This document shows, in pieces, positions 3,970 through 64,000 of a stretch of 64,000 nucleotides of DNA. Each line of letters opens with the position of its first letter. The first letter of the stretch is position 1. The notes below the pieces were generated by a model. It saw only the letters and a program-made list of their open reading frames with translations, did no database searches and was not told the origin of the DNA. Made by a program: the position numbers and the translations under genes. Source of the stretch: a virus; the IMG/VR virus record IMGVR_UViG_3300009082_000017, positions 32,001 through 96,000 of that record; one strand, given 5' to 3'.

Positions 3970-4075
3970 CAAATTTGTTATCCAACCCCATAAAATTGCG
4001 ATTTCATGGTATTAATACTATAATATTATAGTAGGCACAATGCGTAGTCACGGCTACTATATCCAAACATATTAC

Positions 4076-5872
4076 CTATTCATATATTAAAGTACATTTA
4101 GCACCATTGTTAACAACAGTTAATCCATTACTAAATGGGGCGTTAAATTCCATTTCTCCGACTACTTTACTGGCATCTATTACAGCTATCTGTGTTCCTG
4201 TTGCCGAAACACTATCATAGATTGTAAATGTACCGGTGTTATCCAAATTTATAACTTTTTGTAAAGTCCCTGCACTATACTTGAGAACAGTTGTAGCGTT
4301 TGTACCAGAATAAAAATATTGTGGAAGGGTAGTAAGTTCACCAAGCCTTAATATGGTTAAGACTTTTATCAAAATTGAATTATCAGTAGTATTTCCACCA
4401 CTATTAATATTTTCAACTCTTGCTTGTAAATCCAATGTCTGAGGTGATTGTAATCCACTTACATCTGTAATTGTATGTAATAAAATATCATTTACAAAAT
4501 ACTTTGCTGAAACCTCAGAAATATTAATAACTATTCTTTTCATTAAAGTATCTATAGCAACTTCTTTACCAAAATTCCCATTAAAACTTCCAGAAGTTAC
4601 AATTGTATCAACGCCCGCTCTTCTATATCCAACTCCAAATGTAGTCCCATCAACTTGGAAAAAATACCCATTATTGTCATCGTATGCACCTGCACGTCTG
4701 ATATTGTTAGCTTGTGGCGCTGTTACAAGTCTAGCGACGCATCTAAACTGATTAGCTGCACCTGTAACTTTTCTTGCCTTTCGAACACTTGTAACTTTTA
4801 TAGTTGAATTAGCTGTTGTTCCAGTAGATACAGTTAATTCCCCTGCTTGGGAAGCACTACCAGTGCCAGTTGCAACAGCAGTCCAAAAATTAGTATCCAA
4901 TGTTGATCCACTAAAAGCTGTCCCGACTAATCTCACTGGGGTTATTGTTTTTAAAGACCCTAATGGATCAACTTCAACACGTGCACCTGTTTCTAAATCT
5001 TCAATTCCAGAAGATACACTAAGCCTTCCATATGAATTCAACGACCTAGGCAAAGGATCTGCAATTGGGCAAAGATAACTTGCTAATCTAAAATATGTTG
5101 TGTCAGTTGTTCCTGTTAATATAACTCTAACTCTCCAATAACCAGTAATTGCCTGTACGGTATTCCCCATTGCACCTTTTGAATAATAATAAGCAAAAGA
5201 ATCAGATATATCCCAATTTGTTCCATCGTCAGACTGTTCAATATAGACTGTAGCATTTTGATCTGTTTTCAAATTCCATTGAAGCCCAACAATTCCTAGA
5301 GTTGAAGTTGGAGAACCTGTAAATGTATATGAATTTGTAGAATCTAAATTTGTAGTACTGCTATTATTTGTATCTGCATGTACTGCTTGGATAGCTGCAA
5401 CACCTAAATATTTTTGACCATCCGCATCGGTATGTGATTCTATTGCGCAACCGGAAGTATCATATATTACAGAATCAATAGATGTTGGGAAATTTGTTAT
5501 ACTTCCACTATATGTCGTAGGAAAATTCAAAATATTCATACTCCCACTAATAGGATTAGCATCATGTACAGCCAAAGCAACATCAGTCCCAACAATAGAT
5601 GTACCTGCTACAATTTTAGCACGAGCATCAGTTGTTGTATCTTTAAGTGCAACAGCGTCTATACTAATAGAAGATCCACAAATAGTAGAATTCATATTAA
5701 TTTGGAATGGGGATACTGTTAAATCTTTATTTATAATTAACCAACTATTTGTATCAGTTAAATAGATTGTTTTACCAATATTTGCCGCTCCACTTATTTT
5801 ACTTCCAGATATATCTGTAGACAATGCCAAGTATGCAGGCATAGTATTTGAGTTTATAAATGTTACAGTCAT
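4076..5872 (-). CDS. Ser/Thr/Gly-rich putative virion structural protein (598 aa)
   Basis: Long ORF with SD AAGGAGG; beta-rich T/S/G composition; lies in the morphogenesis-side operon. Confidence 0.55.
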   Translation of the reverse strand: MTVTFINSNTMPAYLALSTDISGSKISGAANIGKTIYLTDTNSWLIINKDLTVSPFQINMNSTICGSSISIDAVALKDTTTDARAKIVAGTSIVGTDVALAVHDANPISGSMNILNFPTTYSGSITNFPTSIDSVIYDTSGCAIESHTDADGQKYLGVAAIQAVHADTNNSSTTNLDSTNSYTFTGSPTSTLGIVGLQWNLKTDQNATVYIEQSDDGTNWDISDSFAYYYSKGAMGNTVQAITGYWRVRVILTGTTDTTYFRLASYLCPIADPLPRSLNSYGRLSVSSGIEDLETGARVEVDPLGSLKTITPVRLVGTAFSGSTLDTNFWTAVATGTGSASQAGELTVSTGTTANSTIKVTSVRKARKVTGAANQFRCVARLVTAPQANNIRRAGAYDDNNGYFFQVDGTTFGVGYRRAGVDTIVTSGSFNGNFGKEVAIDTLMKRIVINISEVSAKYFVNDILLHTITDVSGLQSPQTLDLQARVENINSGGNTTDNSILIKVLTILRLGELTTLPQYFYSGTNATTVLKYSAGTLQKVINLDNTGTFTIYDSVSATGTQIAVIDASKVVGEMEFNAPFSNGLTVVNNGAKCTLIYE

Positions 5873-5935
5873 AGATCCTCCTTTTTAATTTTTTATTTGT
5901 TTATAATGAATCTATGATGATGATTTTATATAATA

Positions 5936-5967
5936 TAAAAAACTATCATCAATCCGATGATAGTTTT
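5936..5967. terminator. Intrinsic terminator-like hairpin
   Basis: AAAACTATCATC-aatcc-GATGATAGTTTT with A/T tracts; downstream of tRNA-Pro on the minus strand. Confidence 0.65.
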
Positions 5968-6033
5968 CTGCGTTACATAAATATTTGATTATTATATTTC
6001 CATGAAATGTGTGTTTTATTGGAGATTTATCAG

Positions 6034-6107
6034 TAGCGCAAGCGCGATTTGAACGCGCAACCTCAGACTCCCAAAGTCTGACTTCTGCCAAATTGAATTA
6101 CTGCGCT
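6034..6107 (-). tRNA. tRNA-Pro(UGG)
   Basis: AGCGCAG/TTGCGCT acceptor, CAGAC-TTTGGGA-GTCTG anticodon arm, GCGCG-TTCAAAT-CGCGC T arm. Confidence 0.8.
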
Positions 6108-6111
6108 ATAT

Positions 6112-6439: not shown

Positions 6440-6483
6440 GGGTTAAACCACATGAAATATCCGTTTTATTGGGATATTTGTTA

Positions 6484-9049: not shown

Positions 9050-9092
9050 CCTAACCCAATAAAATTTCTCTTTCATGGTGTTGAATCATCAT

Positions 9093-10205: not shown

Positions 10206-10526
10206 CTATTCGCTTTCTTCTTCGTTATTACTATAACCCCTCTTTACAATACCCCTCAAATTAGAAGCTAACTTAAAACTAACACTTTCTGTTTCTGGAA
10301 TTAAAATTTTTGTTTTTGCCCCCTTGATTCCTGGGGTTGGTTTGTTCCCCTCATGTTCTGGGGTGGTGGAGTATTGGAGTTGACCAAATCCACGAATGGA
10401 CAAATCTACTCTTTTTTTTATAATATCGTGTAGTACTTCTATTAGTGAGTTTAGTATATCGTTACATCCCTCTTTTGTATACCCTGATTTTTCGGAGAGG
10501 GCGGTTATAAATTCTTCTTTTTGCAT
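10206..10526 (-). CDS. hup: HU/IHF-like DNA-binding protein (YonN-like position)
   Basis: MQKEEFITALSEKSG...LSIRGFGQL...GNKP...IPETESVSFKLASNLR. Confidence 0.85.
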   Translation of the reverse strand: MQKEEFITALSEKSGYTKEGCNDILNSLIEVLHDIIKKRVDLSIRGFGQLQYSTTPEHEGNKPTPGIKGAKTKILIPETESVSFKLASNLRGIVKRGYSNNEEESE

Positions 10527-10625
10527 TTTGGGTTCCTTTTATTGTTCCTTTTTTAGTTTTAGATATAATTGGTATATATTACCATTAAAGTAGAAAAGTA
10601 CCTTACTCTGTATAAGTATATCTTA

Positions 10626-11405
10626 TCAATGGTTTTCTTGCCAATATTTTTTAGAATTTTCCCTTATTGCGTCTTCTCTTTTTTCTTTATAGCATTCTTT
10701 ACAAAGATTATGCATTTTAGATTTTTCATCTTTTTCTAATGTTTTCTTACACTTCTCACAAAAAATTGGAAGGTATTCTGATAAAATATTTATATCATCT
10801 ATAATCATTTCGATATCAGAATCGTTATTTATAATACACACTTCCCATGTTCTAGTATTTATTTCTGTTGCCGAAATATAACCAGATTCAGCATCTAGGA
10901 AATGTTTCATAATTTTTATTCCATCATTTGTGACTCCTACTTTTGCAATTCTTGTTATCTCTCGCATAGTCTGATAACAATAATATTTTTGACTTTCTAC
11001 TTGTACCTTATTTTTTTTATATACTTTATTTTCTTTCGAATGTTTTGCAAGAACCAACATCACAAATAAAACTTTAGCATACTTATATGGAAGATTTCTA
11101 ATAATATCCATTTCTGCAACAGTTACAATAACGTCATTACAAGTTTTTAGATTATACTTCTCTGCTGACCTTAAAGCATATGCTATGGTTTCTCTATGGA
11201 TTACCTCATTAAAATTAGAACTATGTTCCTTGCAGAAATTAATTAATTCTTTTTTTAATTTTATGCCTGTAATACCAATAGAAAAATAATATTTTGCAAG
11301 TGTCGCTATTTCATATCTAGTTATCGTTCCAGACTCAAATCCATTCTTTAAAATATCCTGTGCTTTTGCCAATTCATCAAAGGTTATTTTTCGATGAGAT
11401 GCCAC
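10626..11405 (-). CDS. Hypothetical protein with C-terminal Zn finger, coupled to the RNAP gene
   Basis: Overlaps the RNAP stop; CEKC...CKEC. Confidence 0.7.
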   Translation of the reverse strand: MASHRKITFDELAKAQDILKNGFESGTITRYEIATLAKYYFSIGITGIKLKKELINFCKEHSSNFNEVIHRETIAYALRSAEKYNLKTCNDVIVTVAEMDIIRNLPYKYAKVLFVMLVLAKHSKENKVYKKNKVQVESQKYYCYQTMREITRIAKVGVTNDGIKIMKHFLDAESGYISATEINTRTWEVCIINNDSDIEMIIDDINILSEYLPIFCEKCKKTLEKDEKSKMHNLCKECYKEKREDAIRENSKKYWQENH

Positions 11406-14080
11406 AAATCAACCCTCACAATCTCATATTTTGATCCCATATAATCTATATATCCATCATTAGATTTTACAGGCATTATGAATTTTCTATTAGAATATTC
11501 TTTCAACACTTCAACCAAATCATCACCAAAAACATCCAATAAAAATGATGAACCAAATTCACTTCCCCAATAAACTATTTCGTCTGAAGAAGTTACAATA
11601 GAATCTGATTGTTCGCGTAACCACTTCATCATTTCTTGGAAACCAGATGAACTTGACTTATAGTTGATCTGCTGTTTGAATTGTCTGTACTTTTGATATA
11701 GGTTTTCAAGAACCACTTTATTCTTTTCTTTATATTCGATATTGTTATCTACTAAACTCTTAAAATCAAAAGATTTTAATTGATTATTCTTTTTTAGTTC
11801 TTTTACTTGTGATTCCATGTAGTGACAAATTTTATTCATAACACAATCAGAGTCTAGTAATGTACCAAAACGATAATAGTTACTAACAATTCGTGATTCT
11901 TCTTCATTTTTGTTTTCTTTATTTATGATATGGTTTAAGTCTCCATCGAATTTTGATTCACAATAATTATTATAAGTATCTAAGCGTTCTTTGTACTCTT
12001 TTTCATAATTTGGATATAAGTATCTAAAGAAATAAGGTCGTTTATCACAAATAGTACGATGATGTAATTCTTTTAAATGTAATTCTTCTGGTGTTTCGTC
12101 TCCGGTTATCTTTTCCCATTTTGTCCAATATTTAGGAACATCCATGGTTTGGATTCCTTTTGCACGATCTATTTCCATAGATTGAAGACAATTACAAATT
12201 TTTAGACGGTTTAAAATTTCGTTGTATTCTTCCGAGCCTTCTTCAAATTGAGATAGCATAGCAAAGAATTCTGTACCAAAATTAGTATAGAGACCTATCC
12301 GACCTTTGAAGGTTTTTATATCGTATTCCCATAGTTCGGATTCTACTATAATTTTCTTTTCTGCGGTTTTCCTATTATACATAGGAGGAAGAAAATCTTT
12401 TTCAGCATAAGCGCATTCCAAAAATTCTTTCTGATCTGTAGTCAATAAAATATCACCGTCGAAATCACAATTGCTCATCTTTAGAGCATCTATGCCATAA
12501 ATATTAAATACTATGCCCGTATCAAGATACTTGTACCAATACTTTAAATCTTCATTATTTTTTATATTTAATAAATTTGATTCCGAACGCCACGTCATAG
12601 GACTTCGTATTGCACAAACTTTAGAAATATTTTTTTCGTTCCAGAATTGGCAAAAGCTTTCTCCATCACTCAAAATACCTTTAGTTTGTAAACCTAGCGC
12701 CCATTCCGCTTGAGCAAAAGGGTCGCTGACGAGGAATTGGTAATTACCATTTAAAAGCAAAACTCCCAAATAACTTTCTTTTATTTTTTTATTTATTAAT
12801 CGTTGTATCTTATTTTGAATTTGTTTGTCATTAATAAGTTTAGGTTCTAATAATAAAGATTGAAGTAATGGATTGTCTAATTTGTTAAACCAATCTTCGC
12901 CAATTCTGCTTTTATCAATATCTCCCATAAGGAAAAGAGTTGTATAAATCCAATCATTTCCAGTTACATTATTAAACCAATCAACTGTTTTTTTACACAA
13001 TCCTTCGACTTGTTCTTTTGTTTGTATATTTAGATTCTGTAAATATTGATAGGTGGAAAAACAGTGCCCCTTCTCGGAAGATGGCTTAATGCTACAGCGT
13101 GATATTCCAAACGAATAGTCTAACTCTTTACATTTTTCAATATATTCTTCTGTGCTTTTATAAGATTGATACATTTTAAATTGTGAGACAGAAATAATTG
13201 TGTCAATACTTTCAATAGGATATTGATTTCCGTAAACATCTTTAATTGTTTCAATATTATTTCTTCTTGCTAATTCGTGAAAGTCAAATGTAACTAACAA
13301 ACCCTTTAGAAAACCGTCTCTTATAATAAACTCTGATGGAGTATAGTCAAGTTGTAATTCCGCCCCCCACTGTTTTGATCTTTCGGGACTCACTAATCCC
13401 TGTCCATCAAACAAATTAAATTTTGTATTTTGTTTTTCAGGATATACTAAAGGATCTTTGCTTTTATTTCCATCATCATGTAAAAAGTCTACTTCAATTA
13501 TTTTTTCAATTTCACAATCTGGTATTACAACAAATTTTGGAACTGACACTCGAAGTGTAGAAGAACTAGCTAAAGCCAAATATGCAGAATATTTATTTGG
13601 GACTAATGGAATTGTTTCGTCTCTTCCGCAATTTAAAAATTTATGCAAATCAGAAAAAATTTCTTCCGTACAAAAAAGAACGGTGCTACGGCGTGCCATT
13701 CCCGCCCCAACTAAAAGACGAACATATTTTTTGCCATTAATCCAAATACCACCTTTGCCTATAATTGTTTTATAATGTCTGGAATCATCAAATTCTATAC
13801 TAATAATATCTTCTATATAAAGTAATTTATCTAATTGTTCATTAATAAAAGAATTTGACTTACGTTTTTTCTTTTTACGAATTAGATCATCAACTTCTGA
13901 TTGATTGTAAGTTATATTGCGTATTCGTTGAATTGCGCGTAATAATTCTGAATTTGATAAGCGAATTACTTCCCCATTTTGTCTTGCTTGGTCTAGAGTT
14001 AATTTTTCTATTTTATATCCGGTATCTCGAAGTCTGGATGAACTAAACTTGAGAACGAAGAAGCTCTGGATTTTCTTAAT
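11384..14080 (-). CDS. yonO: YonO-like single-subunit DNA-dependent RNA polymerase (about 898 aa)
   Basis: Catalytic motif MSNCDFDGD plus FDGQGL, RSPMT, SMEIDRAKG. The frame stays open 127 codons upstream of ATG 13699 to ATT 14080, preceded by SD GAGGTG. Lies one ORF away from HU, similar to SPbeta yonN-yonO. Confidence 0.85.
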   Translation of the reverse strand: MKKIQSFFVLKFSSSRLRDTGYKIEKLTLDQARQNGEVIRLSNSELLRAIQRIRNITYNQSEVDDLIRKKKKRKSNSFINEQLDKLLYIEDIISIEFDDSRHYKTIIGKGGIWINGKKYVRLLVGAGMARRSTVLFCTEEIFSDLHKFLNCGRDETIPLVPNKYSAYLALASSSTLRVSVPKFVVIPDCEIEKIIEVDFLHDDGNKSKDPLVYPEKQNTKFNLFDGQGLVSPERSKQWGAELQLDYTPSEFIIRDGFLKGLLVTFDFHELARRNNIETIKDVYGNQYPIESIDTIISVSQFKMYQSYKSTEEYIEKCKELDYSFGISRCSIKPSSEKGHCFSTYQYLQNLNIQTKEQVEGLCKKTVDWFNNVTGNDWIYTTLFLMGDIDKSRIGEDWFNKLDNPLLQSLLLEPKLINDKQIQNKIQRLINKKIKESYLGVLLLNGNYQFLVSDPFAQAEWALGLQTKGILSDGESFCQFWNEKNISKVCAIRSPMTWRSESNLLNIKNNEDLKYWYKYLDTGIVFNIYGIDALKMSNCDFDGDILLTTDQKEFLECAYAEKDFLPPMYNRKTAEKKIIVESELWEYDIKTFKGRIGLYTNFGTEFFAMLSQFEEGSEEYNEILNRLKICNCLQSMEIDRAKGIQTMDVPKYWTKWEKITGDETPEELHLKELHHRTICDKRPYFFRYLYPNYEKEYKERLDTYNNYCESKFDGDLNHIINKENKNEEESRIVSNYYRFGTLLDSDCVMNKICHYMESQVKELKKNNQLKSFDFKSLVDNNIEYKEKNKVVLENLYQKYRQFKQQINYKSSSSGFQEMMKWLREQSDSIVTSSDEIVYWGSEFGSSFLLDVFGDDLVEVLKEYSNRKFIMPVKSNDGYIDYMGSKYEIVRVDLWHLIEK

Positions 14081-14123
14081 AGCTCACCTCTCTGTATTGT
14101 ATTTTTTATTGATTTATTTTAAG

Positions 14124-14363
14124 TTATTGTAATTCGGAGTGTTTAAAATTTACGCTTCTTTGAATGAATTTTCTGTATGACATCTCAGCCCACGTAAATT
14201 CAAACTCATCATAATTACATTCTTCTAATTCACAATCCCAAAACTTACATTCCTGTTTCCCTTCACAACAATTACAATCTTCCAAATCACCCTCTTGACA
14301 AACTACATAATCTGTGTTACTATTACTCTCTAAATTGCTACTTACGCCATTATAATTTTCCAT
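14124..14363 (-). CDS. Small Cys/Glu-rich hypothetical protein
   Basis: Co-oriented ORF between the promoter and the RNAP gene; weak SD. Confidence 0.4.
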   Translation of the reverse strand: MENYNGVSSNLESNSNTDYVVCQEGDLEDCNCCEGKQECKFWDCELEECNYDEFEFTWAEMSYRKFIQRSVNFKHSELQ

Positions 14364-14645
14364 TAAATATTTTTCTTAGAAATAAATAAAACTATCTAAA
14401 ATATATCCTCCTTCCTTTCTATAATATATTACTTACGAATATTGTGACGGATTTGTTTTCTAAACCGATAAGGAATACCACCACTCATCGAACTGCGCCC
14501 AGTACGTTTACTACTATTGTTATTAGGATTATTGAACAAGATTGATGCGCCTATAAAAATTATTAAAGCTATTACCCACATAATTATTTACCTTATCCCT
14601 TTCTATATAGAAATATAACAAAAGAATTACTTTGTTATTTCTATA

Positions 14646-14756
14646 AGTCTATCACACTTTTGCGTTTTTGTCAAGGGTTAAATAGAACCAATTTTCTATG
14701 TTCAATAAACTGTAATGTCTGTAGACCTTGACAAATTCTTAAAAGTGTGTTATACT
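14646..14756. promoter_or_regulatory. Divergent sigma70 promoters with a LexA-like box between them
   Basis: Minus: TTGACA-17-TAGACT (14646-14674). Plus: TTGACA-17-TATACT (14728-14756). TAGAAC-caat-TTTCTA at 14683-14698. Confidence 0.7.
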
Positions 14757-14893
14757 ACTCTTACAAAAACTGGACTAGATTATGTCTATGGGTGCATCTA
14801 TGGATATAATGACAAACTGGTGTTGTCTCCGCGCCAAGTCCAGTATTTTATTCTTGGAGATGATTTATTATTTAAGTAAAGGAGAAAATAATT

Positions 14894-15103: not shown

Positions 15104-15106
15104 TTC

Positions 15107-16594: not shown

Positions 16595-16801
16595 ATAATT
16601 ATTAGTAGAAATAATACAATTTTTAAAAGTCTGCCATGATAACAAGTGTACACACTAATTAACTGGTTCTCCCATATTTTTATAAATATGTCATTAAATT
16701 ACGTAAAAGCTCTATATAAGGAAATACGGAAAAACATGACAAATTTAAAAGACTATCCCTATTAAATCACCATAGTTTCCTAACGGAAACGCTTACCACT
16801 T

Positions 16802-23469: not shown

Positions 23470-23518
23470 TAGAACATCTGTTCAATGAAATCTATCTTTC
23501 ATTAGAACTTTTGTTCTA
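23470..23518. promoter_or_regulatory. Two LexA-type boxes (GAAC-N4-GTTC) flanking a palindromic site
   Basis: TAGAAC-atct-GTTC at 23470-23483; TAGAAC-tttt-GTTCTA at 23503-23518. Confidence 0.6.
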
Positions 23519-25719: not shown

Positions 25720-25785
25720 AACACTTGTCCCATGAAATAACCTTTTCATTAGAACACATTTTCTATAACAGAAGGGATAAAACAA

Positions 25786-29053: not shown

Positions 29054-29120
29054 CAGAACAAACTTTCTAATGAAATAATCCTTTCATGGAACATATTTTC
29101 TAAAAAACAGGAGGCTTAAA

Positions 29121-29756: not shown

Positions 29757-30007
29757 AACATCTGTTCCATGAAAGAGTGGTTTCATGGTGAATCAACATT
29801 AAATATTGACACTTGGTTGCAAACCCTCACCACATACCCTATTTAAGGCACTCCAGAGCCTCATGGCGCGATTTATACATCAAATTGGACAAATATACAC
29901 TATAACTATTTAAATCGTTTGTAGGGCTTCCTGTGGGATAAAGTTTATGATGATAATAAAGTTGAACATTAGAAAACTTAAAAAATCTAACCAATATCCA
30001 AAAACAC

Positions 30008-31565: not shown

Positions 31566-31632
31566 TCCCCATGAAACTTTTCTTTCATGGTGTAGATAGA
31601 ACAGAAATTCTATAACAGACAATAACAGGAGG

Positions 31633-32747: not shown

Positions 32748-32815
32748 CCACACCAATAAAACATCTATTTCATGGCACTTAACAGATAATCATATTTAAA
32801 TAAAAGGAGAAAATA

Positions 32816-33439: not shown

Positions 33440-33492
33440 TACCCCATGAAATTTCCATTTCATTAGACTATATAACAGAAGGAGACAAATAG

Positions 33493-34294: not shown

Positions 34295-34549
34295 ATGAGA
34301 ATCAATAAGCACACAGAAAAATTAAAAGCTGGTGATAAAATTACTACTGATTTTTTTGAGGGTGAAGAAAGTGTAGTAAGAACAATTATTTGGATTGAAG
34401 ATAATGCAAGGATGGGATCAGGCAGAGAAGTATTTTTCGATGGAGGTAATGAATGTCCTTGTTGTCATAGACTTCTTGGAACACCATTATCTGAACATGT
34501 AAGAGTCGGTGGCATTGATGCGGCTTGGGCTATTGCCATGAAACAATGA
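34295..34549 (+). CDS. Hypothetical protein
   Basis: SD; stop lies inside site 34537. Confidence 0.65.
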   Translation: MRINKHTEKLKAGDKITTDFFEGEESVVRTIIWIEDNARMGSGREVFFDGGNECPCCHRLLGTPLSEHVRVGGIDAAWAIAMKQ

Positions 34550-34571
34550 TTTCATTGAAAGGAAATGAATT

Positions 34572-35295: not shown

Positions 35296-35343
35296 CAACC
35301 ACATGAAATACAATTTTCATGGCAATGAAAGGACATAAATAAA

Positions 35344-35544: not shown

Positions 35545-35717
35545 AGAAGATAAATTAATGGTGGTATTAGAACATTTTTTATCGTTGCATGAAGCCGATG
35601 AAATTTACAATGCAATATTTGATATAACAGTTGACGAAAAACAGTTGAGTGCGATTCTGGATAGTTATAAAGAACCATGAAATTCTACTTTCATTGGAAA
35701 ACAAAAAGGAGATAATA

Positions 35718-35933: not shown

Positions 35934-35971
35934 ACCCATGAAATGTAACTTTCATTAGAAAGGAGAATAAA

Positions 35972-36816: not shown

Positions 36817-37036
36817 CAGAAAGGGAAAAATAAAATGAGATGTAAACATCCAACCAAAGAAATTTTTAGTAGATGGGTAGATATGAATGGGCGTTCAATC
36901 AACTTCAGCGCCGGTATAGGAGAAGTCAAGAAAGAATATACTTGCCTAGCTTGTGGTAAAGTCGTAAGAAAGCCCAAATCAGAATAACAGTCAACGAAAT
37001 ACCACTTTCATGTGGTTAACAGAAAAGGAGAATAGA

Positions 37037-37192: not shown

Positions 37193-37219
37193 CACTCAAT
37201 AAAATTTATATTTCATGGT

Positions 37220-37324
37220 GAAGTAAACCCAAACATCTATTATAAATAGATCAGGGTCTAGAGATTGCGATTTACAATCAGTTTGAATAAATTCAAACAA
37301 AGGAGTGAAATTGCTCCAATAAAT
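37220..37324 (+). ncRNA. Orphan omegaRNA-like scaffold, paralogous to the tnpB 3' end
   Basis: Three blocks align with 38493-38607, with compensatory base-pair changes in two hairpins. Confidence 0.6.
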
Positions 37325-37363
37325 TATATCATTCATGGGAAAAATAAAAAGAAAGGAGGTCAA

Positions 37364-39271: not shown

Positions 39272-39440
39272 ATGAACACAAATTTTTAATGCTTTTAATT
39301 TAAAGGAGTAAACAGTTTACAACCATGAAACTATTGTTTCATTGAAAATAATTTTAGATTAATTTAAGGTAATGTTCTATTGTAATTAAAAAATTAGGAC
39401 TGTATACTATTAGTATAAATAAATAAGAAAGGAATAAAAA

Positions 39441-40022: not shown

Positions 40023-40069
40023 TTCACCCATGAAAGTTCTATTTCATGGTGTTATAAGAAAGGATTAAA

Positions 40070-40741: not shown

Positions 40742-40783
40742 TACCCATGAATTTACCGTTTCATTAGAAAAGGAGAAAAAGAT

Positions 40784-40997: not shown

Positions 40998-41198
40998 ATG
41001 AGCAAATATGAATATTTAATAGGGGAAACTGTGTCTTGGAAGGAACATATTGATACAGGTGGAGGCACATATAATTATTGCGAAGGAAAAGTTTTAAACG
41101 TAATTGGTAAAAATGTATTTTTTGAATCAGATGTTAAGTGGATTCCTTATATGCACGAATTAAAAATTATTGAAAAGACGACACAAATAACCCCATGA
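40998..41198 (+). CDS. Hypothetical protein
   Basis: SD GAGG; stop TGA supplied by site 41194. Confidence 0.65.
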   Translation: MSKYEYLIGETVSWKEHIDTGGGTYNYCEGKVLNVIGKNVFFESDVKWIPYMHELKIIEKTTQITP

Positions 41199-41302
41199 AA
41201 TTGCTCTTTTATTGAAAACATTAGAATTCTTAAAATTTCTAAAAAAACTATTGTAATTGTGTTTTTCTCGTGGTATACTATTGCTAGAAAAGGAGATGAA
41301 AT

Positions 41303-41864: not shown

Positions 41865-42120
41865 TCCCCATGAAATGAGACATTCATGGGAATAAAGAAA
41901 GGATAATGAAATGGACAAAAAAGAATTGAAAGAATATTTACGCAATAACTTAGGCGTGACAGTTTTTATCAATGATGGCGATCTTCAAGTGGATATTACT
42001 TTAGAGGATGAAGTTATTGCCAGCGCAGGAACTTGTATGCCGTTTGAAAATGCTCGTTATGATGATTATGGTAATCGAATTTAACCCCATAAAACAACGC
42101 TTTCATGTGGAAAGGATAAA

Positions 42121-42846: not shown

Positions 42847-42891
42847 TTCCTAATAAAACGTTCATTTCATGTAGTAGAAAGGTAGGATAAA

Positions 42892-43299: not shown

Positions 43300-43334
43300 A
43301 ATTTCCATGAAATTCGCATTTCGTTGAGAATTTT

Positions 43335-43410: not shown

Positions 43411-43443
43411 CTAGGTAAAATTATTGAAAGGAGATATAACACA

Positions 43444-44808: not shown

Positions 44809-44979
44809 ATGAAAATCAATTGGAAAGCGATTTTTGGGCGTTTACTAATTTTGGTAGTTTTAGGGACTTTAACCTTTTTGTCATTTTCCCTTGGATGGGA
44901 TCTTTATGCCAAAGCATTAAGTACAGTTTTTACGGCGATTTTCCTTATTGCCATTGGCTTTGAACTGATGTTTTCATGA
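44809..44979 (+). CDS. Small 2-TM membrane protein
   Basis: SD GGAGGG; stop lies in site 44975. Confidence 0.6.
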   Translation: MKINWKAIFGRLLILVVLGTLTFLSFSLGWDLYAKALSTVFTAIFLIAIGFELMFS

Positions 44980-45340
44980 AATTAGTATTTCGTGGGATTG
45001 GGCAAATTAAAATTTACATTATAGGAGATTAAATGCTATTTTTCTGGATTGTGATATTGATTTTGTTTGCGGGTTGTAAGTAATTGGGTATTGACAGTTT
45101 GAAATAAATATGATAGTATTAGTAAAGAAAAGGAGATTTAAATGGATATAAATATTCAAAAAAGTATTTTGCTTGGATTGTTTGGAATGGCATATGCTAT
45201 AAGAAGTTTGCGCCTATATATGTATACTAAATCAAAATGGGATTTATTGGGAATTTTATTTGGGGTTATAAGTATTGTATACAGTTTTACCCCATGAAAC
45301 CTGAATTTCATTGGGTTGTATAACAGAAAAGGAGAATAAA

Positions 45341-45774: not shown

Positions 45775-46263
45775 ATGAATTTACAAGATTTTTTTAGTAA
45801 AACAAATAAAGTTATTGATCTTGAAAATTCACATTATCGTTTTCAAGAAATTAGACCTAGAATAATTTGTCGGGATGGTGTTTCATTATCTGTTCAAGGA
45901 AGCGAAACACATTATTGCCAACCGCGCATTAATGATTATGCCAATTATTATGAAGTAGAAGTTGGATATCCATCAATAAGACCACCTGAAACATGGAAAC
46001 AATATTTTGATGGTGAATGGCAACAAGTAGGAATTATTGGATGGATTAAAAGAGTTTGGAAAGAAAGGTCTAACATTTTCTATTCCTTGAAAAATTTGAA
46101 GGGATTAGGCAAGTGGAAGATTAAAGATATTCTTTCTTTGGAAGATAATGCAACAAGGAGTGTTTATGGTTATATTCTTAGTAGTTTAGTTGAAGATTTT
46201 ATTAATACTCATGGTGGAATAGATGAAGAAGAAACTTTTAAAAAATCTACCATGAAAGAGTAG
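45775..46263 (+). CDS. Phage hypothetical protein
   Basis: CRDGVSLSVQ...HYCQPR...VEVGYPS...HGG. Confidence 0.75.
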   Translation: MNLQDFFSKTNKVIDLENSHYRFQEIRPRIICRDGVSLSVQGSETHYCQPRINDYANYYEVEVGYPSIRPPETWKQYFDGEWQQVGIIGWIKRVWKERSNIFYSLKNLKGLGKWKIKDILSLEDNATRSVYGYILSSLVEDFINTHGGIDEEETFKKSTMKE

Positions 46264-46291
46264 ATTCATGTGGTTGGTGGAAAGGACAGTT

Positions 46292-46510: not shown

Positions 46511-46533
46511 TAACCCAATGAAACGAGGATTTT

Positions 46534-46917
46534 ATGGGAATGTTTGATAGTGTTGGTTTAGAATGTAATTTGCCAGAAAATATTGAACCATATAGAAAAG
46601 GTTGGTGGCAGACAAAAAGCCTTGGTAGACATATGGATCAATATTATATTGACAATGATCATATTTATAAAGAATTGTGTCATTATGAAGATGTCCCAGA
46701 GCAAGAAAGAACATTCTATGGAGAACCGGAGTGGGATAAAGATGATTTTTATAAATTAATAGGATCACAAAAACGAATAGTAGATAAAACTGTTGTGGTT
46801 GACTATACTGGCGAAATAGAATGCCATGCATATGTTGAAGAAAAACAATTAATGGTTCGATTATTATTTACTTTTGTAAACGGAAATTTATTGAAAAAAG
46901 AAGTTTTGACACCATAA
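46534..46917 (+). CDS. Phage hypothetical protein
   Basis: MGMFD...WQTKSL...F.NGNL; start in site 46517, stop in site 46913. Confidence 0.75.
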   Translation: MGMFDSVGLECNLPENIEPYRKGWWQTKSLGRHMDQYYIDNDHIYKELCHYEDVPEQERTFYGEPEWDKDDFYKLIGSQKRIVDKTVVVDYTGEIECHAYVEEKQLMVRLLFTFVNGNLLKKEVLTP

Positions 46918-46940
46918 AATAATGGTTTCATGGAGAAAAA

Positions 46941-47180
46941 ATGAAAACAAAAATGTATGAAGTATTTTTTGAAATTATTGGAAAGCATTTAGATGCTCAT
47001 AAATTTCTGAACGCTAATGAAGATTGGCTTCTAGAAATGTATAAGGATTTGTCTAATAATATTCCCAATTCTACAATCAAAGATATTAAACGACTTGACC
47101 TATATAACATGGGTCACATTGACTATCATCATAAATTCGCTCTGCATTGTGATGAATTATATCAGAAAAACACCCCATAA
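46941..47180 (+). CDS. Hypothetical protein
   Basis: GHIDYHHKFALHC; stop lies in site 47176. Confidence 0.7.
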   Translation: MKTKMYEVFFEIIGKHLDAHKFLNANEDWLLEMYKDLSNNIPNSTIKDIKRLDLYNMGHIDYHHKFALHCDELYQKNTP

Positions 47181-47250
47181 ATTATGTATTTCATGGGAAA
47201 TTACTTGACTTTTTGCAATAAATATGATAATATTATAAAAAAGGAGCATT

Positions 47251-50791: not shown

Positions 50792-50876
50792 TTTCAATGA
50801 ATGGAACATTTCATGTGAAATTGGCACTTGACAAAAATCAAGAATAGGTGTATAAATATAGAAAGGAGAAAATATT

Positions 50877-51503: not shown

Positions 51504-51550
51504 TCCCCATGAAAAACTTATTTCATGTGGTATAAAAGAGAGGATAATGA

Positions 51551-51955: not shown

Positions 51956-52013
51956 CTACCACATGAAATCTGGCTTTCATGGTGTAGTATAAATATAATA
52001 AAAGGAGAATGAA

Positions 52014-52487: not shown

Positions 52488-52531
52488 CTCCATGAAACTG
52501 CGCTTTCATGGGAAGATCAGAAAGGATTGAT

Positions 52532-52702: not shown

Positions 52703-52727
52703 TACGGGGTAATGAAAGGACGATTTC

Positions 52728-52919
52728 ATGGGAAAACAAGCAGTAATTTATTTCAAAAATGGAACTAAAGATTGGGTTGATCCGATTGACGATGAATCTA
52801 GAGATATATTTTATGGAGATTCTGTTATAATTGTTACCAATGGAGCGAATAATAAATATGTTTATGATAAGTTGTCAGTTGAAAAGATTGAATTTATTGA
52901 ATTGGATAATATAGAATGA
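52728..52919 (+). CDS. Hypothetical protein
   Basis: SD and ATG both supplied by site 52711. Confidence 0.65.
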   Translation: MGKQAVIYFKNGTKDWVDPIDDESRDIFYGDSVIIVTNGANNKYVYDKLSVEKIEFIELDNIE

Positions 52920-53823: not shown

Positions 53824-53870
53824 TACCTAATGAAATGTAGGTTTCATGGTAATAAGAAAGGAGAAGTTCT

Positions 53871-54597: not shown

Positions 54598-54757
54598 AGA
54601 TAAAAGAGTACGATGTTTAAACTGTTATCATGAGTTTTGGATGGATGCGAAATTGCCTAAAAAAATGTCGTGGTGTCCTCGTTGCAACAGCTTAAATATT
54701 GAGTTCGCCAAAGAATATGGCAAACAAGTAATTGAGTTAAGAGAATATGGAGTCTAA
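54581..54757 (+). CDS. Small Zn-ribbon protein
   Basis: CLNC...CPRC. Confidence 0.55.
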   Translation: MKIWRKDKRVRCLNCYHEFWMDAKLPKKMSWCPRCNSLNIEFAKEYGKQVIELREYGV

Positions 54758-54796
54758 TAAAATGGGGATTTCATGGAATTTTAGAAGGAGTAAGTA

Positions 54797-55582
54797 TTGA
54801 AACTATATTATAAAGACGAATATTGCACTTTACTTCAAGGTGATTGTCTTGAAGGCATGCAGAAAATGGCAGAAAAGGGTTTGAAATTTGATGCAATCAT
54901 AACAGACCTTCCCTATGGAACTACTGCTTGTAAATGGGATACAATTATTCCTTTTGATAAAATGTGGGAATGTTTGAATAATTTAAGAAAAGATAATTCA
55001 CCAATTATTTTGTTTGGAAGCGAGCCATTTAGTAGCTTGTTGAGATGTAGTAATCTGAAGGAATTCAAGTATGATTGGATTTGGAGGAAAAATACAGGGA
55101 CAGGGTTTGCAACGGCAAAATATCAACCATTAAAATATCATGAAATTATATCAATATTTTCAATTGGCAAAATAAAATATAACCCCATCCCAACTGAAAG
55201 ATTTAGCGAAGCAAGTAAAAGGGTATGTAAAAATCCAGTAAGAGGTGGCGGGAAAACAACAAGCAACCATGTTCCAATGAATATTGTGAAAGTCCAATAT
55301 GATAGCGAAACAAAAACGCCAGAAAGCGTTTTAGAATTTAAAAGTGTTCCTAATGCTGGAGGAAATAAATTGCATCCAACGCAGAAACCAATTGAACTAT
55401 TAGAGTATCTTATAAAAACATATACAAATGAAGGTGATATAATTTTAGATTTTACTTGTGGATCTGGAACTACTTTATTAGCAAGTAAAAAATTAAATCG
55501 TAAATGTTATGGTGTTGAATTAGAAAAGAAATATTGTGAAGTTACCAAAAATAGATTAATTGAGTTAGATAATACCCCATGA
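54797..55582 (+). CDS. DNA N6-adenine/N4-cytosine methyltransferase (beta class)
   Basis: GDCLE, TDLPYG, HPTQKP, LDFTCGSGTT; bounded by sites 54756 and 55578. Confidence 0.9.
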   Translation: MKLYYKDEYCTLLQGDCLEGMQKMAEKGLKFDAIITDLPYGTTACKWDTIIPFDKMWECLNNLRKDNSPIILFGSEPFSSLLRCSNLKEFKYDWIWRKNTGTGFATAKYQPLKYHEIISIFSIGKIKYNPIPTERFSEASKRVCKNPVRGGGKTTSNHVPMNIVKVQYDSETKTPESVLEFKSVPNAGGNKLHPTQKPIELLEYLIKTYTNEGDIILDFTCGSGTTLLASKKLNRKCYGVELEKKYCEVTKNRLIELDNTP

Positions 55583-55617
55583 AACTGTTGTTTCATTGAA
55601 AATTTAAAGGAGAGAAA

Positions 55618-55854
55618 ATGAAATACTACAAATATGATTACGGTGCGATTGGCGCTTATTGCTTTGGATTTTCAAATTTGATTGAATCTGATTCTCTTGG
55701 AAATGCAATAAATGAAATTACAAAGAAATCAGAGAGGTTATTTAATCATTATGAGTATGGTGGTTTTGGTGAAGCATCTAGATTCGAAATTAATGAAATT
55801 TCTGAAAGATTATATAACGAGTTGTCAGAAGGAAATAAAAGATTTACCCAATGA
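55618..55854 (+). CDS. Hypothetical protein
   Basis: Site-bounded; stop lies in site 55850. Confidence 0.7.
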   Translation: MKYYKYDYGAIGAYCFGFSNLIESDSLGNAINEITKKSERLFNHYEYGGFGEASRFEINEISERLYNELSEGNKRFTQ

Positions 55855-55887
55855 AATGTCCAATTCATGTGGTAGAAAGGTTTAGGC

Positions 55888-56421
55888 ATGCCAAGACCAA
55901 TAGAATTTAATGATTATATAACTGAAGGTAATATTACAATAATAAAATTGAATCATAAACCAAACATTCTTTGGGCAATTATAGATACGGAAGATTTGCC
56001 AAAATTAATTGATTTAGAGTATAGATGGTGCGCCAGATATAGAAAATATTTAGATGATTATTATGTTCAATGCAACACATATTTTGGCGGAGTTCATAAA
56101 ACTTTTACATTACATCAGTTTGTTTTAAATTATTTTGAAAAATCAGGAATAGATCACATTAATGGTGATACATTAGATAATAGAAAATCAAATTTGAGAA
56201 TTAGTGATAAAAGGCAAAATCATCAAAATAGGAAATCAAAAAACGCAAACAATAAAACAGGATACAGAAATGTATGCTTTATAAAAGGCAAATATGTTGT
56301 AACATTGCAAATAGATGGAAAGCAAAAAACTTTAGGTAGATTTGATGATGTTGATAAAGCGGGTGCTTTTGCCGAAGAAATGAGACAAGATCACTATAAA
56401 GATTGGGCTGGTAATAATTAA
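55888..56421 (+). CDS. HNH endonuclease with AP2-like domain (paralog of 50258-50791)
   Basis: IDHINGDTLDNRKSNLR...NNKTGYRNV. Confidence 0.85.
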   Translation: MPRPIEFNDYITEGNITIIKLNHKPNILWAIIDTEDLPKLIDLEYRWCARYRKYLDDYYVQCNTYFGGVHKTFTLHQFVLNYFEKSGIDHINGDTLDNRKSNLRISDKRQNHQNRKSKNANNKTGYRNVCFIKGKYVVTLQIDGKQKTLGRFDDVDKAGAFAEEMRQDHYKDWAGNN

Positions 56422-58002: not shown

Positions 58003-58218
58003 ATGAAAGGCAAATTCAGGAAAGACCATGACGATCACAACTATTTTATTCCAGAAATCTCTCTAGAAGCTTTTGACGATTATCAGACTAGGCTTGGATT
58101 ACTTGATTTTTATGGAGATGAGTGGGAGGCTTTGAATGATGAGTTTTTAGAAAGATTTGAGAAACTTGTTTTGAAGTACCCGCCCAATCATTATTTAATT
58201 GAAATGTCATTACCATGA
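58003..58218 (+). CDS. Hypothetical protein
   Basis: SD AAGGAG; stop lies in site 58214. Confidence 0.65.
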   Translation: MKGKFRKDHDDHNYFIPEISLEAFDDYQTRLGLLDFYGDEWEALNDEFLERFEKLVLKYPPNHYLIEMSLP

Positions 58219-58255
58219 AATGCCAGTTTTATTAGAATGACGGAAAGGATAAATT

Positions 58256-58733: not shown

Positions 58734-58922
58734 ATGAATAATGATATAAATGTATTGCCCGTTGGTGATATAAAATCGCATATCGAAGATGCAACTTGCC
58801 CCTGCAATCCGAGAATTGAAGTTATAAGGGCTAATTTATTAATTGTTCATCATGCTTGGGATAATAGAGAATTATTTGAGGAAATTGATGCTGCTATAAA
58901 AGATGGTAGTTTAATGAAATAG
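58734..58922 (+). CDS. Hypothetical protein
   Basis: VLPVGD...H...CPCNP...VHHAWDNRE; start uncertain. Confidence 0.6.
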   Translation: MNNDINVLPVGDIKSHIEDATCPCNPRIEVIRANLLIVHHAWDNRELFEEIDAAIKDGSLMK

Positions 58923-59241
58923 TGCTTTCATGGATAAAATTAAGGAGAAATAATGGATTATAAAAAGGTTTACGGGCACGTTGATAAGTTTGGTGATTTT
59001 TATGAGGATAAAGAAGAGGCATCAGATGAACCGGATTTGATTATTAATTTTGACGAATATTTTCGATGGTTTTATGTTATGAAAATTGTCAAATTTTTCA
59101 AGAAACTATTACACATAAAATGAGCAATTCATGGAGTACAAATGAATAGTAAAAATAAAAACATACAGACAATAATTTGGATTCTAGGAATCATATTATT
59201 CCTTATAATTACTTTTGGAGAAAGTTTTAGGTGGTGGTAAA

Positions 59242-62482: not shown

Positions 62483-63312
62483 AAAAAGTTATTCTCACTA
62501 AGGGACTCCAAGGTTGCGGGAAAACAACTTGGGCAAAACAGATGCAAGCAGATTTTCCTAATCAGTATAAGCGCGTCAATAAGGACGATCTTAGACTCAT
62601 GCTTGATAATTCTATTTGGAGCAAAGGAAATGAAAAGTTTGTTTTAAAACTTCGTGATCATATTATTTTACAAGCATTAGAAGATGGAAAGCATGTGATT
62701 GTGGACGACACTAATTTAAATGTCGTCCACGAAAACCATATCAAAGAATTAGTAAAGGGTTTGGCAGAAGTAGAAATAAAAGACTTCACGGACATTGATA
62801 TTGAAACTTGTATCAAAAATGATACTAAACGTGCTAATCCTGTTGGAGAAAAGATTATTCGTCAAACCTATAAACAATGGTTGTATAAAGAACCGGTTAA
62901 GCCAGAATATATAAACGATGCTCCAGATGTGATTATTTGTGACATGGATGGTACACTATCATTATTCGGTGATAAGAATCCATACGAAAGAGATTTTGAA
63001 AATGATATATTAAATAATGTTATTTATGATATTATCAAAAATAAAAACTTACTTTTCGTTTCTGGACGTAAAAATAAATATAGAAATAAAACATTAGAAT
63101 TTTTGCAAAACAATAATATTAAATTTATTTCTTTGTTTATGCGAGGCGATGAGGATGATAGAAAAGATTCTATTGTCAAAAAAGAAATTTACGAGAAATA
63201 TATCTTAGGGAAATATAATGTTCAATTTGTTTTAGATGATCGAACACAGGTTGTAAAATTATGGCGTTCTTTAGGACTGACATGTCTACAAGTAGCAGAT
63301 GGTGATTTTTAA
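62479..63312 (+). CDS. pseT: Polynucleotide 5'-kinase/3'-phosphatase (T4 PseT-like)
   Basis: GLQGCGKTT, RVNKDDLR, DDTN, CDMDGTL, SGR, LDDR, GDF. Confidence 0.9.
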   Translation: MKKVILTKGLQGCGKTTWAKQMQADFPNQYKRVNKDDLRLMLDNSIWSKGNEKFVLKLRDHIILQALEDGKHVIVDDTNLNVVHENHIKELVKGLAEVEIKDFTDIDIETCIKNDTKRANPVGEKIIRQTYKQWLYKEPVKPEYINDAPDVIICDMDGTLSLFGDKNPYERDFENDILNNVIYDIIKNKNLLFVSGRKNKYRNKTLEFLQNNNIKFISLFMRGDEDDRKDSIVKKEIYEKYILGKYNVQFVLDDRTQVVKLWRSLGLTCLQVADGDF

Positions 63313-63384
63313 CCCCATGAAATAACCCTTTTATTGGGATTTTTCAATCAATTATTAGTAAAAAGGAGAGAAAATGGACGCAAA

Positions 63385-63639
63385 ATGATGTTGGATTTAG
63401 GAAAAGAAAACGGACTACAAACTATGCGCGAATGTTATGAATCTGTTATGACAGACTATAAAAAGTTTTTCTCAGATGAAAATTATTTGAATGAAGAAGC
63501 TACTTTTGAAAATGATATTGATAAATATGGTCTAGAATTGACTGACACTATTAAAGAAGCTTATGTTAAACTTGGTGTTGAAGAATCTGTTTGGAATGAA
63601 GTAGAAGATTCACAAAATAAAAATTTATTAGGATGTTAA
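63385..63639 (+). CDS. Hypothetical protein
   Basis: ATG 63385 overlaps the stop of a 4-codon ORF that carries the SD. Confidence 0.55.
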   Translation: MMLDLGKENGLQTMRECYESVMTDYKKFFSDENYLNEEATFENDIDKYGLELTDTIKEAYVKLGVEESVWNEVEDSQNKNLLGC

Positions 63640-63649
63640 AGGATAAAAT

Positions 63650-63898
63650 ATGACAAATAAAATCACCATCACCTCAATAACTATAACTCCTCCTAAAACT
63701 ATTGTTCGTTGGAGTGATAAAACACGCACAGAAGTAAACTGCGATACAGATCCTTTTGATGAAGAAAAAGGTGTATTGTTATGTATTTGTAAGAAATTTT
63801 TAGGGTCATATTCTGAAGTTATGAAGGCAGTGGATATGGGCAAGAATGATGTTAAGGAAAGTATTAAGAAGTTTAATGAGAGTAGGAAATTACTCTAA
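63650..63898 (+). CDS. Phage hypothetical protein (related to 51551-51955)
   Basis: TIVRWSDKTRTEVNC...FDEEKG...CICKK. Confidence 0.75.
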   Translation: MTNKITITSITITPPKTIVRWSDKTRTEVNCDTDPFDEEKGVLLCICKKFLGSYSEVMKAVDMGKNDVKESIKKFNESRKLL

Positions 63899-64000
63899 TG
63901 AAATCTCTGTTTCATGGAGTAAGGAAAATTATGGACTGGATATTTAAAAGATTAACTTGTTTCTTTAAAGGATGCAATAAAACATATTGGCACGAAAATG

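Follow-up and report, generated by a model that had tools for sequence, protein, structure and literature searches.

Why would a phage place the same short palindrome at dozens of its gene junctions, each time around a different centre? The window analysed here, a stretch of 64,000 nt, comprises bases 32001-96000 of the IMG/VR viral record IMGVR_UViG_3300009082_000017 (G000), a single contig of 160,042 bp, and the element in question is a dyad of two inverted 7-bp arms around a 6-bp centre, of the type CATGAAA-N6-TTTCATG. A sequence-only reading of the window had proposed an integron- or pdif-like system that shuffles gene cassettes. That reading missed a property that emerges from the comparison with related phages: the centres behave as conserved, ordered labels, which points to exchange between like labels of different genomes and not to shuffling within one genome. 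The sites may thus be heterospecific recombinase sites, labelled crossover joints by which co-infecting relatives exchange DNA, a reading that we judge to be about evenly poised between right and wrong.

The degenerate pattern from which the sequence-only reading started finds 47 exact copies in the window, where shuffled sequences give 0.69, and 90 in the whole genome. Adding copies with up to two mismatches from CATGAAA-N6-TTTCATG brings the window total to 50. The motif is real and enriched; the 57 copies counted previously must include weaker ones. An unbiased scan of G000 for CATGAAA-N6-TTTCATG recovered 15 perfect, 43 one-mismatch and 34 two-mismatch copies (~92), where the same scan of Markov-2 simulations yielded 0, 0.2 and 2.9, respectively. 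The spacing is rigid, with 90 genome copies at 6 bp and 0-3 at each other spacer length from 2 to 11 bp; the 6-bp rule, previously read in 56 of 57 copies, therefore stands, although the single deviating copy was not found. Mismatches fall nearly all at mirror positions (C>A at 1, G>A at 4, C>T at 17 and G>T at 20). The symmetry extends outwards, as had been noticed, with CCC added on the left (C in 47-66 of 90 copies) and GG(G/A) on the right (G in 39-58 of 90), giving an arm consensus of ccC[C/A]AT[G/A]AAA in which 7 bases are conserved strongly and 3-4 weakly. Both arms share the same consensus and the same variants, and the first base of the spacer is hardly ever A, the last hardly ever T. 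Inverted arms around a centre of fixed length, 6 bp in 90 of 90 copies, correspond to the core-site layout of tyrosine recombinases of the lox, FRT and dif type (central region of 6-8 bp), the resemblance on which the cassette proposal had been built. The inner C of CATG is the commonest variable position in each arm (C>T or G>A); speculatively, this could reflect a methyl-cytosine hot spot.

G000 derives from a freshwater sediment metagenome and has a G+C content of ~32%, with structural genes on the minus strand up to ~44 kb and more than 200 genes, mostly small, on the plus strand. The contig is probably complete, because its two ends run contiguous in a relative. Thirteen of its proteins match Bacillus phage SPBc2, including the terminase YonF (32% identity), YonG, the tape measure protein, the YomM recombinase, YorI, YorJ, YorK and YorL. 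Their genes fall into tail/packaging and replication clusters shared with SPBc2, and G000 is a distant SPbeta-like phage. Megablast of 12 kb of G000 against GenBank phages gave no match. Relatives were found by motif scan and terminase search of IMG/VR: G001 (143 kb, terminase identity 96%, 76-88 sites), G002 (125 kb, 71%, about 50-60 sites) and G003 (a 55.8-kb fragment, 65%, 18 sites). G000 and G001 have core genes of 30-96% amino-acid identity and few accessory genes in common. Five further independent relatives came from metagenome loci around homologues of the Xer-like recombinase described below; a metagenome scan with the recombinase alignment returned four short contigs only.

All spacers within G000 differ, an observation that had been made before and set aside as not significant alone. 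It becomes significant once reverse-complement duplicates and palindromes are counted together with plain duplicates: none of the three occurs, against 7.1 expected with columns shuffled (P=0.0006). The same test gave 1 against 7.1 in G001 (P=0.005), 0 against 4.5 in G002, the centres of which are largely different and independent (P=0.007), and, in an underpowered comparison, 0 against 1.6 in SPbeta. Depletion of one-mismatch pairs within a genome was not significant. Identical recombination cores in direct order lead to deletion and in inverted order to inversion, and a palindromic core loses its direction. To judge from these counts, the uniqueness and asymmetry of the centres look like the constraint expected of a recombination core, not of an operator or a hairpin loop.

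Moreover, the centres are retained between genomes. As many as 42 G000 sites share an identical centre with a G001 site, all of them collinear, where 2-5 would be expected by chance and a randomised order of the G001 centres leaves collinear chains of just ~10; only 4 one-mismatch pairs were found between the two genomes, no more than chance would give. Of the 29 window sites up to 44994, 21 have their centre in G001. The arms of the shared-centre pairs differ at 46 of 588 positions (about one per site), and at arm positions 3 and 17 a pair with a common centre shows no greater similarity than two sites drawn at random (0.86 vs 0.87 and 0.73 vs 0.74, respectively). Mean G000/G001 identity is 0.94 within the site and drops to the random level of 0.30 directly outside the left arm and by ~30-50 nt beyond the right one. 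Where orthology could be judged by a homologous flank, the centre was identical in 7 cases (flanks 79-89% identical), off by at least 2 bases in 5 and shortened by a 1-bp deletion at one site, with no single substitutions. Centres are thus identical or replaced, with nothing between, indicative of constraint plus wholesale replacement rather than drift. Beside the core CAGATA, the orthologous non-coding flank has visibly diverged (~65-70% identity by eye), whereas the centre is identical. The centres GTGTTC and CCGGTA recur in five independent assemblies, and GCAACA and CGACTG in four, and a contig with a recombinase only 58% identical keeps TAAGGA, GTTCAA and CAAGAG in the expected order. For a given centre, left and right flanks differ among genomes up to the arms, in many combinations. 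Centres common to G000 and the distant G002 number 5 against ~2.7 by chance, which is not convincing.

The position of the sites relative to genes is equally regular. Seen in the direction of transcription, the start of most sites, whichever strand the genes are on, falls in an interval from 13 nt ahead of the end of the preceding stop codon to 11 nt past it, bearing out the earlier impression that most copies lie at a gene junction, at or just after a stop. The stop is often a TAA directly before ccc, or a TGA within CATGAaa, and in long intergenic gaps in which a promoter follows, the site stays by the upstream stop codon. One copy lies inside a tail gene outside the window (G000 8323). No site separates the functional partners Prs and NAMPT, or RNA ligase and PNKP, which indeed share a module as first read. 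The expectation that the sites mark spots where relatives differ in gene content was likewise borne out: DNA between consecutive shared centres is often unrelated (tblastx coverage 0.00), as in four successive single-gene slots at G000 130559-131656, and across six assemblies the slots GTGTTC>CGACTG, CCGGTA>GAACCA and TGCCCG>CGCAAG hold unrelated genes between the same two centres.

Similar dyads occur in the cultivated SPbeta group. SPBc2 carries 34 perfect copies of TAAAA-N6-TTTTA, against 0-3 with other spacings, and over 16 kb the centres that SPbeta shares in collinear order number 10 with phi3T and likewise 10 with SPbetaL1. SPbeta and phi3T also have a 3.2-kb block of 99.97% identity that starts 1 nt from one dyad and stops 2 nt from another, next to DNA that is 91-93% identical or unrelated. 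Of 28 block ends, 9 are no more than 6 nt away from a dyad, where ~0.8 would be expected at random. Since the dyads of SPbeta, phi3T and SPbetaL1 behave likewise, the G000 motif can be regarded as the lineage-specific form of a feature of this phage group, and for the same reason the idea can be tested by ordinary genetics in Bacillus subtilis.

The window encodes no recombinase, as previously stated, and the genome-wide search found two intact tyrosine recombinases (Phage_integrase proteins) outside it; a serine recombinase and a Y1 transposase (Y1_Tnp) are absent from the G000 genome. The first enzyme (G000 125647-126597, 316 aa) is Xer-like, with XerA (4e-18), a second XerA and XerD as its best solved relatives, and its full R-K-HxxR-H-Y set is invariant in the G000, G001 and G002 orthologues. 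The orthologue of G001, a genome with the same arms, is 76% identical to it and that of G002 32%; in G002 the motif is (C/A)(A/T)TAAAA-N6-TTTTA(A/T)G, most commonly CATAAAA facing TTTTAAG. The arm sequence therefore varies between phage lineages, and the divergence of the Xer-like enzyme tracks the change in the arms. Dyads were present on every contig found via this enzyme; these are related phages, so this is not independent co-occurrence. The second enzyme (G000 15909-16943, 344 aa) adjoins the tape measure gene, is the counterpart of SPbeta YomM (26% identity, 4e-18) and is ~48% identical in both G001 and G002. A weak PDB match of a G000 recombinase to IntI4 was also recorded (3.5e-4). The phage thus encodes a tyrosine recombinase with a complete catalytic set, as lox-, FRT- and dif-type systems do, and this is a candidate cognate enzyme. 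In a more distant relative, an ENA scaffold with a recombinase 46% identical (L088), most copies have A...T at the outer arm position (AATAAAA-N6-TTTCATT), both arms having changed jointly at the level of the lineage.

On the reading of the sites as crossover joints, one phage-encoded protein would bind as a dimer to the two common arms, and the 6-bp centre, unique to each site, would serve as its address. The protein would most likely be a phage tyrosine recombinase, with the Xer-like enzyme of 316 aa as first and the YomM-like enzyme of 344 aa as second candidate. Strand exchange by tyrosine recombinases needs matching centres, and for this reason only sites with the same address could recombine. 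Within one genome no two sites would then recombine, hence no deletions or inversions, whereas between co-infecting relatives each site could pair off with the like-labelled site of the other genome and cross over there. What lies between two sites, be it a tRNA gene or one or a few genes that bring along a Shine-Dalgarno sequence (SD) or promoter, would be swapped in register, leaving genes uncut and their order kept. In a variant of this scheme, a site-specific nuclease would cut within the centre and phage ligases would rejoin the ends, with matching overhangs enforcing the order. Recombination within the centre, with a requirement for matching centres, is indirectly supported by the unique, asymmetric and conserved centres and by homology that ends at the site edges; what we infer is that a protein binds, which one it is, that it cuts at the centre and that the exchange takes place in co-infected cells.

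To our knowledge, the modular theory of phage evolution has long been without a mechanism for exchanging genes precisely at their ends, and we know of no natural counterpart of the exchange between engineered heterospecific lox or FRT sites. In such systems non-identical spacers inhibit Cre-type recombination, and spacer variants provide orthogonal lox sites (PMC10850332). Like engineered lox/FRT sites used in recombinase-mediated cassette exchange (PMC10850332), the G000 sites combine common arms with variable spacers. In the engineered systems only sites of equal spacer recombine, and a segment between two different spacers is exchanged in register, as is proposed for G000; unlike these man-made systems, the G000 sites would deploy ~90 labels at once between co-infecting genomes. 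More tentatively, and with somewhat less confidence than an even balance would warrant, we suggest that this lineage and the wider SPbeta-like group run a natural form of recombinase-mediated cassette exchange, in which segments between ~90 orthogonal labelled sites reassort like those of a segmented virus and the labels forbid rearrangement within a genome. Should the sites indeed prove to be orthogonal recombination targets, these phages would possess a natural system for exchanging accessory genes across the genome, among them methylases, nucleases, tRNAs and probably counter-defence genes. Such a system would account for the turnover of the accessory genome in these phages with gene order kept, and provide dozens of naturally orthogonal sites for one recombinase, useful for genome engineering. 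A literature search retrieved no description of these dyads as recombination joints.

The sites share with dif/XerCD, single-recombinase Xer systems and the pdif modules of Acinetobacter the ~11-bp inverted arms and the 6-bp centre; pdif sites also bracket gene modules, and XerA and XerD are the closest solved relatives of the candidate enzyme. However, dif occurs once per replicon, and pdif sites have distinct XerC and XerD arms, alternate in orientation and rely on host enzymes. The ~90 G000 sites have symmetric, lineage-dependent arms and centres that are position-specific labels. The identity of the two arms in consensus and variants, together with the difference in arm sequence between phage lineages, rules out pdif/dif modules, and the candidate factor is phage-encoded and lineage-specific, so that the pdif part of the cassette proposal was not upheld. 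Nor was the integron part. Integrons are similarly arrays of small genes, each with a recombination-type site at its 3' end, but attC sites are imperfect repeats of 57-141 nt that are recombined as folded single strands and move with the cassette, and IntI has a characteristic extra domain. The G000 sites are duplex-type palindromes of 20-26 bp that do not travel with the cassettes and stay put while genes change, and the genes have their own SD or promoter. With a fixed geometry free of pairing constraint, no folded attC-type site, no IntI and IntI4 as only a weak match, an integron was ruled out. Arrays of attC have been reported in phages (PMC9892861).

Several observations weigh against the joints as the places of exchange. 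The check proposed earlier, whether gene gain and loss break at the sites, gave no support in the pair G000/G001: block ends of blastn homology in the accessory regions lie within 30 nt of a site in 9 of 88 cases, compared with 6% for random positions and 26% for gene boundaries, so that they are not enriched at sites beyond gene boundaries and a large part of the mosaic has arisen at other places. A homologous gene (window 32816-33439) is bounded by CATCTA and TTTCCA in G000 but by GAACGA and CATCTA in G001, with the switch point ~25 nt downstream of the site, in a 5' untranslated region (UTR) with a TAACAG motif, and homologous genes or cassettes occur between different centres in other relatives too. 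Because many breakpoints lie away from the sites, these would be conserved joints but not the sole places of breakage and joining. Orthologous sites with diverged or decayed centres are found at G000 18499, 148162 and 30137, and drift or decay is seen at some sites of the conserved structural region. It is also not obvious what selection would keep each centre constant, since a mutated centre costs nothing at once. Relatives carry homologous recombination genes of the Sak4/exonuclease type that could use the identical 20-26-bp sites, and homology to recombinases is no proof of recombination, because MrpR of SPbeta, with a tyrosine-recombinase fold, is purely a repressor acting on a repeated element (PMC10516654). 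Our sequence analysis yielded no direct observation of a recombination event, a circle or a protein-DNA contact. Listed joints in Logan contigs (source sample X1 and groundwater run X2, the latter with many contigs that match in part) have sides of ~21 nt, which is the site itself, and were not used.

The strongest alternative, which we nonetheless consider rather unlikely, is that the dyads are genome-wide sites of a regulator or DNA-organising protein (an operator, a roadblock or the target of an MrpR-like repressor), and that the mosaic arises passively by homologous recombination of the Sak4/RecT type at the only conserved 20-26 bp. Independent half-sites at a fixed spacing would suit any dimeric DNA binder, but such a binder leaves unexplained why centres are never duplicated, reverse-duplicated or palindromic, and why they are constant across relatives while arm positions and orthologous non-coding DNA vary. 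In favour of a regulator, some sites are followed by sigma-70-like promoters; against it, the sites follow the upstream stop and not the downstream promoter or SD, and they flank tRNA genes too. The many breakpoints away from sites, or 25 nt beside them, and the Sak4-like and PD-(D/E)XK recombination proteins of relatives fit the passive route. The precedent of a repressor with the fold of a recombinase comes from the same wider phage group: the SPbeta repeated element (SPBRE), a 15-bp motif in ~10 SPbeta promoter regions, is bound by MrpR (YopR), which is without catalytic residues (PMC10516654). The likeness lies in a repeated intergenic element bound by a recombinase-fold protein. The differences are in the motif, in its location in promoter regions and in the enzyme, as the Xer-like protein of G000 keeps all catalytic residues that MrpR is without. 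Indeed, seven MrpR-bound SPbeta promoter regions share AAAAAATATGTATA and not the dyad. In a sequence search of solved structures neither G000 recombinase matched MrpR (PDB 8A0A), and blastp to YopR remained at chance level. SPBRE/MrpR was rejected as an explanation on these two counts, the difference between AAAAAATATGTATA and TAAAA-N6-TTTTA and the lack of resemblance of either recombinase to MrpR. Stoperators of Cluster A mycobacteriophages and the start-associated sequences (SAS) and extended SAS (ESAS) of Cluster K also consist of one short motif repeated tens of times in the short gaps between phage genes, but are regulatory motifs, asymmetric or start-associated (PMC3203893), and lack a unique conserved centre.

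A role in RNA, with the palindromes acting as 3'-end stem-loops (terminators, processing sites or 3' stabilisers) like those of T4 or the 'stem_loop' features of SPbeta, seems improbable. A position at, or directly behind, the stop codon on the transcribed strand, whichever way the gene points, would suit such structures, the stem can reach 10-11 bp when the flanks are counted, and the SPbeta GenBank record annotates many gene-end stem-loops. The arms, however, do not co-vary, and more clearly so than the sequence-only reading had stated, compensated pairs being fewer than expected. Among 90 copies, pair 1-20 is CG in 35, AG in 25, CT in 24 and AT in 6, giving 41 Watson-Crick pairs against 49.7 expected from column frequencies, and pair 4-17 is GC in 50, AC in 21, GT in 18 and AT in 1 (51 against 58.3). 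Double compensated changes are therefore rare, and A.C (21) is about as common as G.U (18) at pair 4-17, so that neither strand is favoured. The loop is conserved better than the stem, the commonest G002 form gives an A.A clash, no T-run follows the sites, and an Rfam search found three tRNAs only and no family that matches the dyad. Without base-pair co-variation the arms read as two half-sites on duplex DNA, each site apparently tolerating about one weak half-site; the pattern fits a double-stranded DNA target of a dimeric protein rather than a hairpin, as the independent variation of the arms had first suggested. The promoter-early stem-loops (PeSLs) of T4-type phages combine a sigma-70 promoter with a terminator stem-loop and recombine homologously between any copies, giving mini-circles (PMC2839356, PMC4122927). 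PeSLs are the closest counterpart in the literature of conserved intergenic gene-swap motifs, being likewise short and placed among small accessory genes where related phages insert, delete and replace genes. In contrast, the G000 motif has neither promoter nor base-pair conservation, its rigid 6-bp centre is unique to each copy and kept in relatives, and it comes with a candidate recombinase; identity with PeSLs was ruled out by the absence of a promoter within the motif, of a T-run and of stem co-variation.

Small mobile elements spread through intergenic DNA (like repetitive extragenic palindromes (REP) or miniature inverted-repeat transposable elements, or linked to IS200/IS605 TnpB) are very improbable: although the palindromic copies are many and dispersed and TnpB genes lie in site-bounded modules here (window 37265-38575) and in relatives, there is no Y1 (HUH) transposase in the genome, variation is limited to four mirror positions and each centre is unique and keeps its place on the map in relatives, contrary to what elements copied of late would show, so that repeats derived from IS200/IS605 or from REP and their associated transposases (RAYT) were ruled out, the copies being position-specific and orthologous between genomes.

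Table 1. Dyad sites of the window that match the degenerate pattern or lie within two mismatches of CATGAAA-N6-TTTCATG; strand is given as '.' throughout. The G001 contig ends past the counterpart of window 44994.
Core	Window position	Strand	Remarks	Basis or counterpart
TTGCGA	3989..4008	.	adjoins tRNA-Thr	same core G001 101496
TGTGTG	6001..6020	.	adjoins tRNA-Pro	pattern match
TATCCG	6451..6470	.		same core G001 103412
TTTCTC	9058..9077	.		pattern match
TCTATC	23484..23503	.	TAGAACA boxes flanking	same core G001 117490
TAACCT	25731..25750	.		same core G001 119052, G003 39335
TAATCC	29069..29088	.		same core G001 121534
GAGTGG	29768..29787	.		same core G001 122083
TGTCAA	30317..30336	.		same core G001 123234, G003 43303
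CTTTTC	31570..31589	.		same core G001 124651
CATCTA	32755..32774	.		same core G001 125657, there downstream of homologous gene
TTTCCA	33445..33464	.		same core G001 126392
CAGCAA	34018..34037	.		same core G001 128556
CAATGA	34537..34556	.		same core G001 129181
TACAAT	35302..35321	.		pattern match
TTCTAC	35676..35695	.		same core G001 130863
TGTAAC	35937..35956	.		pattern match
TACCAC	36993..37012	.	AACGAAA left arm	same core G001 131744
TTTATA	37198..37217	.	upstream of TnpB module	same core G001 132313
TATATC	37318..37337	.	weaker site	same core G001 132539
CTATTG	39324..39343	.		pattern match
GTTCTA	40029..40048	.		same core G001 134594
TTACCG	40746..40765	.		same core G001 135369, G003 49456
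TTGCTC	41194..41213	.		same core G003 51414
TGAGAC	41869..41888	.		same core G001 136838
CAACGC	42088..42107	.		G001 137270 has CAATGC
CGTTCA	42852..42871	.		same core G001 138495, left flank homologous
TTCGCA	43306..43325	.	TTTCGTT right arm; adjoins tRNA-Arg	motif variant
TTAGTA	44975..44994	.	TTTCGTG right arm	same core at very end of G001 contig (143066)
CCTGAA	45293..45312	.	example given in the sequence-only reading	pattern match
GAGTAG	46251..46270	.		pattern match
CGAGGA	46517..46536	.	right-arm ATG is start of next gene	pattern match
TAATGG	46913..46932	.		pattern match
TATGTA	47176..47195	.	opens Prs/NAMPT module, then promoter	pattern match
GGAACA	50796..50815	.	closes Prs/NAMPT module	pattern match
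AACTTA	51508..51527	.		pattern match
TCTGGC	51962..51981	.		pattern match
CTGCGC	52491..52510	.		pattern match
GGACGA	52711..52730	.	right-arm ATG is start of next gene	pattern match
TGTAGG	53829..53848	.		pattern match
TGGGGA	54756..54775	.	opens single-gene DNA methylase module	pattern match
CTGTTG	55578..55597	.	closes methylase module	pattern match
TGTCCA	55850..55869	.		pattern match
TGCCAG	58214..58233	.		pattern match
GTGTAA	58684..58703	.		pattern match
TAGTGC	58913..58932	.		pattern match
TGAGCA	59114..59133	.		pattern match
GGAGAA	60079..60098	.	core is the SD; right-arm ATG is start of next gene	pattern match
TAACCC	63316..63335	.	closes GMP-reductase-like/RNA ligase/PNKP module	pattern match
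TCTCTG	63897..63916	.		pattern match

The modules delimited by the sites (Table 1) vary in content. All three tRNA genes of the window, Thr-tgt (3895-3969, minus strand), Pro-tgg (6033-6107, minus strand) and Arg-tct (43335-43411, plus strand), adjoin a site (3989, 6001 and 43306, respectively), and single tRNA genes can therefore be counted as modules too. A solo TnpB gene with OrfB_IS605 and Cas12f1-like TNB domains (37265-38575, plus strand) fills a module, with two sites (37198 and 37318) just upstream. TnpB genes of relatives end right at a site, as in L085 (stop at 1459, site at 1467) and in L078 from 20255 onward; no tnpA was found in the G000 genome. An N6/N4 DNA methylase (54797-55582, plus strand) forms a single-gene module bounded by two sites, genes for HNH endonucleases (55888-56421 and 50258-50791, both plus strand) also occur as modules, and there are several methylase modules in relatives.

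Two further motifs accompany the dyads in the early region. TAGAACA-N4-TTC boxes (palindromes like GAAC-N4-GTTC), which we take to resemble the Bacillus LexA box, are enriched (32 against 7.7 expected; window 23470-31610). They stand on both sides of dyads (23470/23503, 25717/25750, 29054/29087 and 29754) and are kept beside the same sites in G001. In several early genes a CTTAACAGA-type motif lies between the site and the SD (window 32775-32800 and other 5' UTRs), and one G000/G001 recombination switch point falls just past such a motif.

The G001 contig begins 3 nt ahead of one site (L019 4-23) and stops 5 nt past another (L026, record 143066-143085); its assembly may have been broken where flanking cassettes are polymorphic in that sample. 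Outside the window, at G000 10226-15845 (L027), what in G001 is a single tape measure protein of 1246 aa is matched by two separate open reading frames (ORFs), of 779 and 370 aa, with an unrelated 431-aa ORF between them and the gene for the YomM-like recombinase adjoining.

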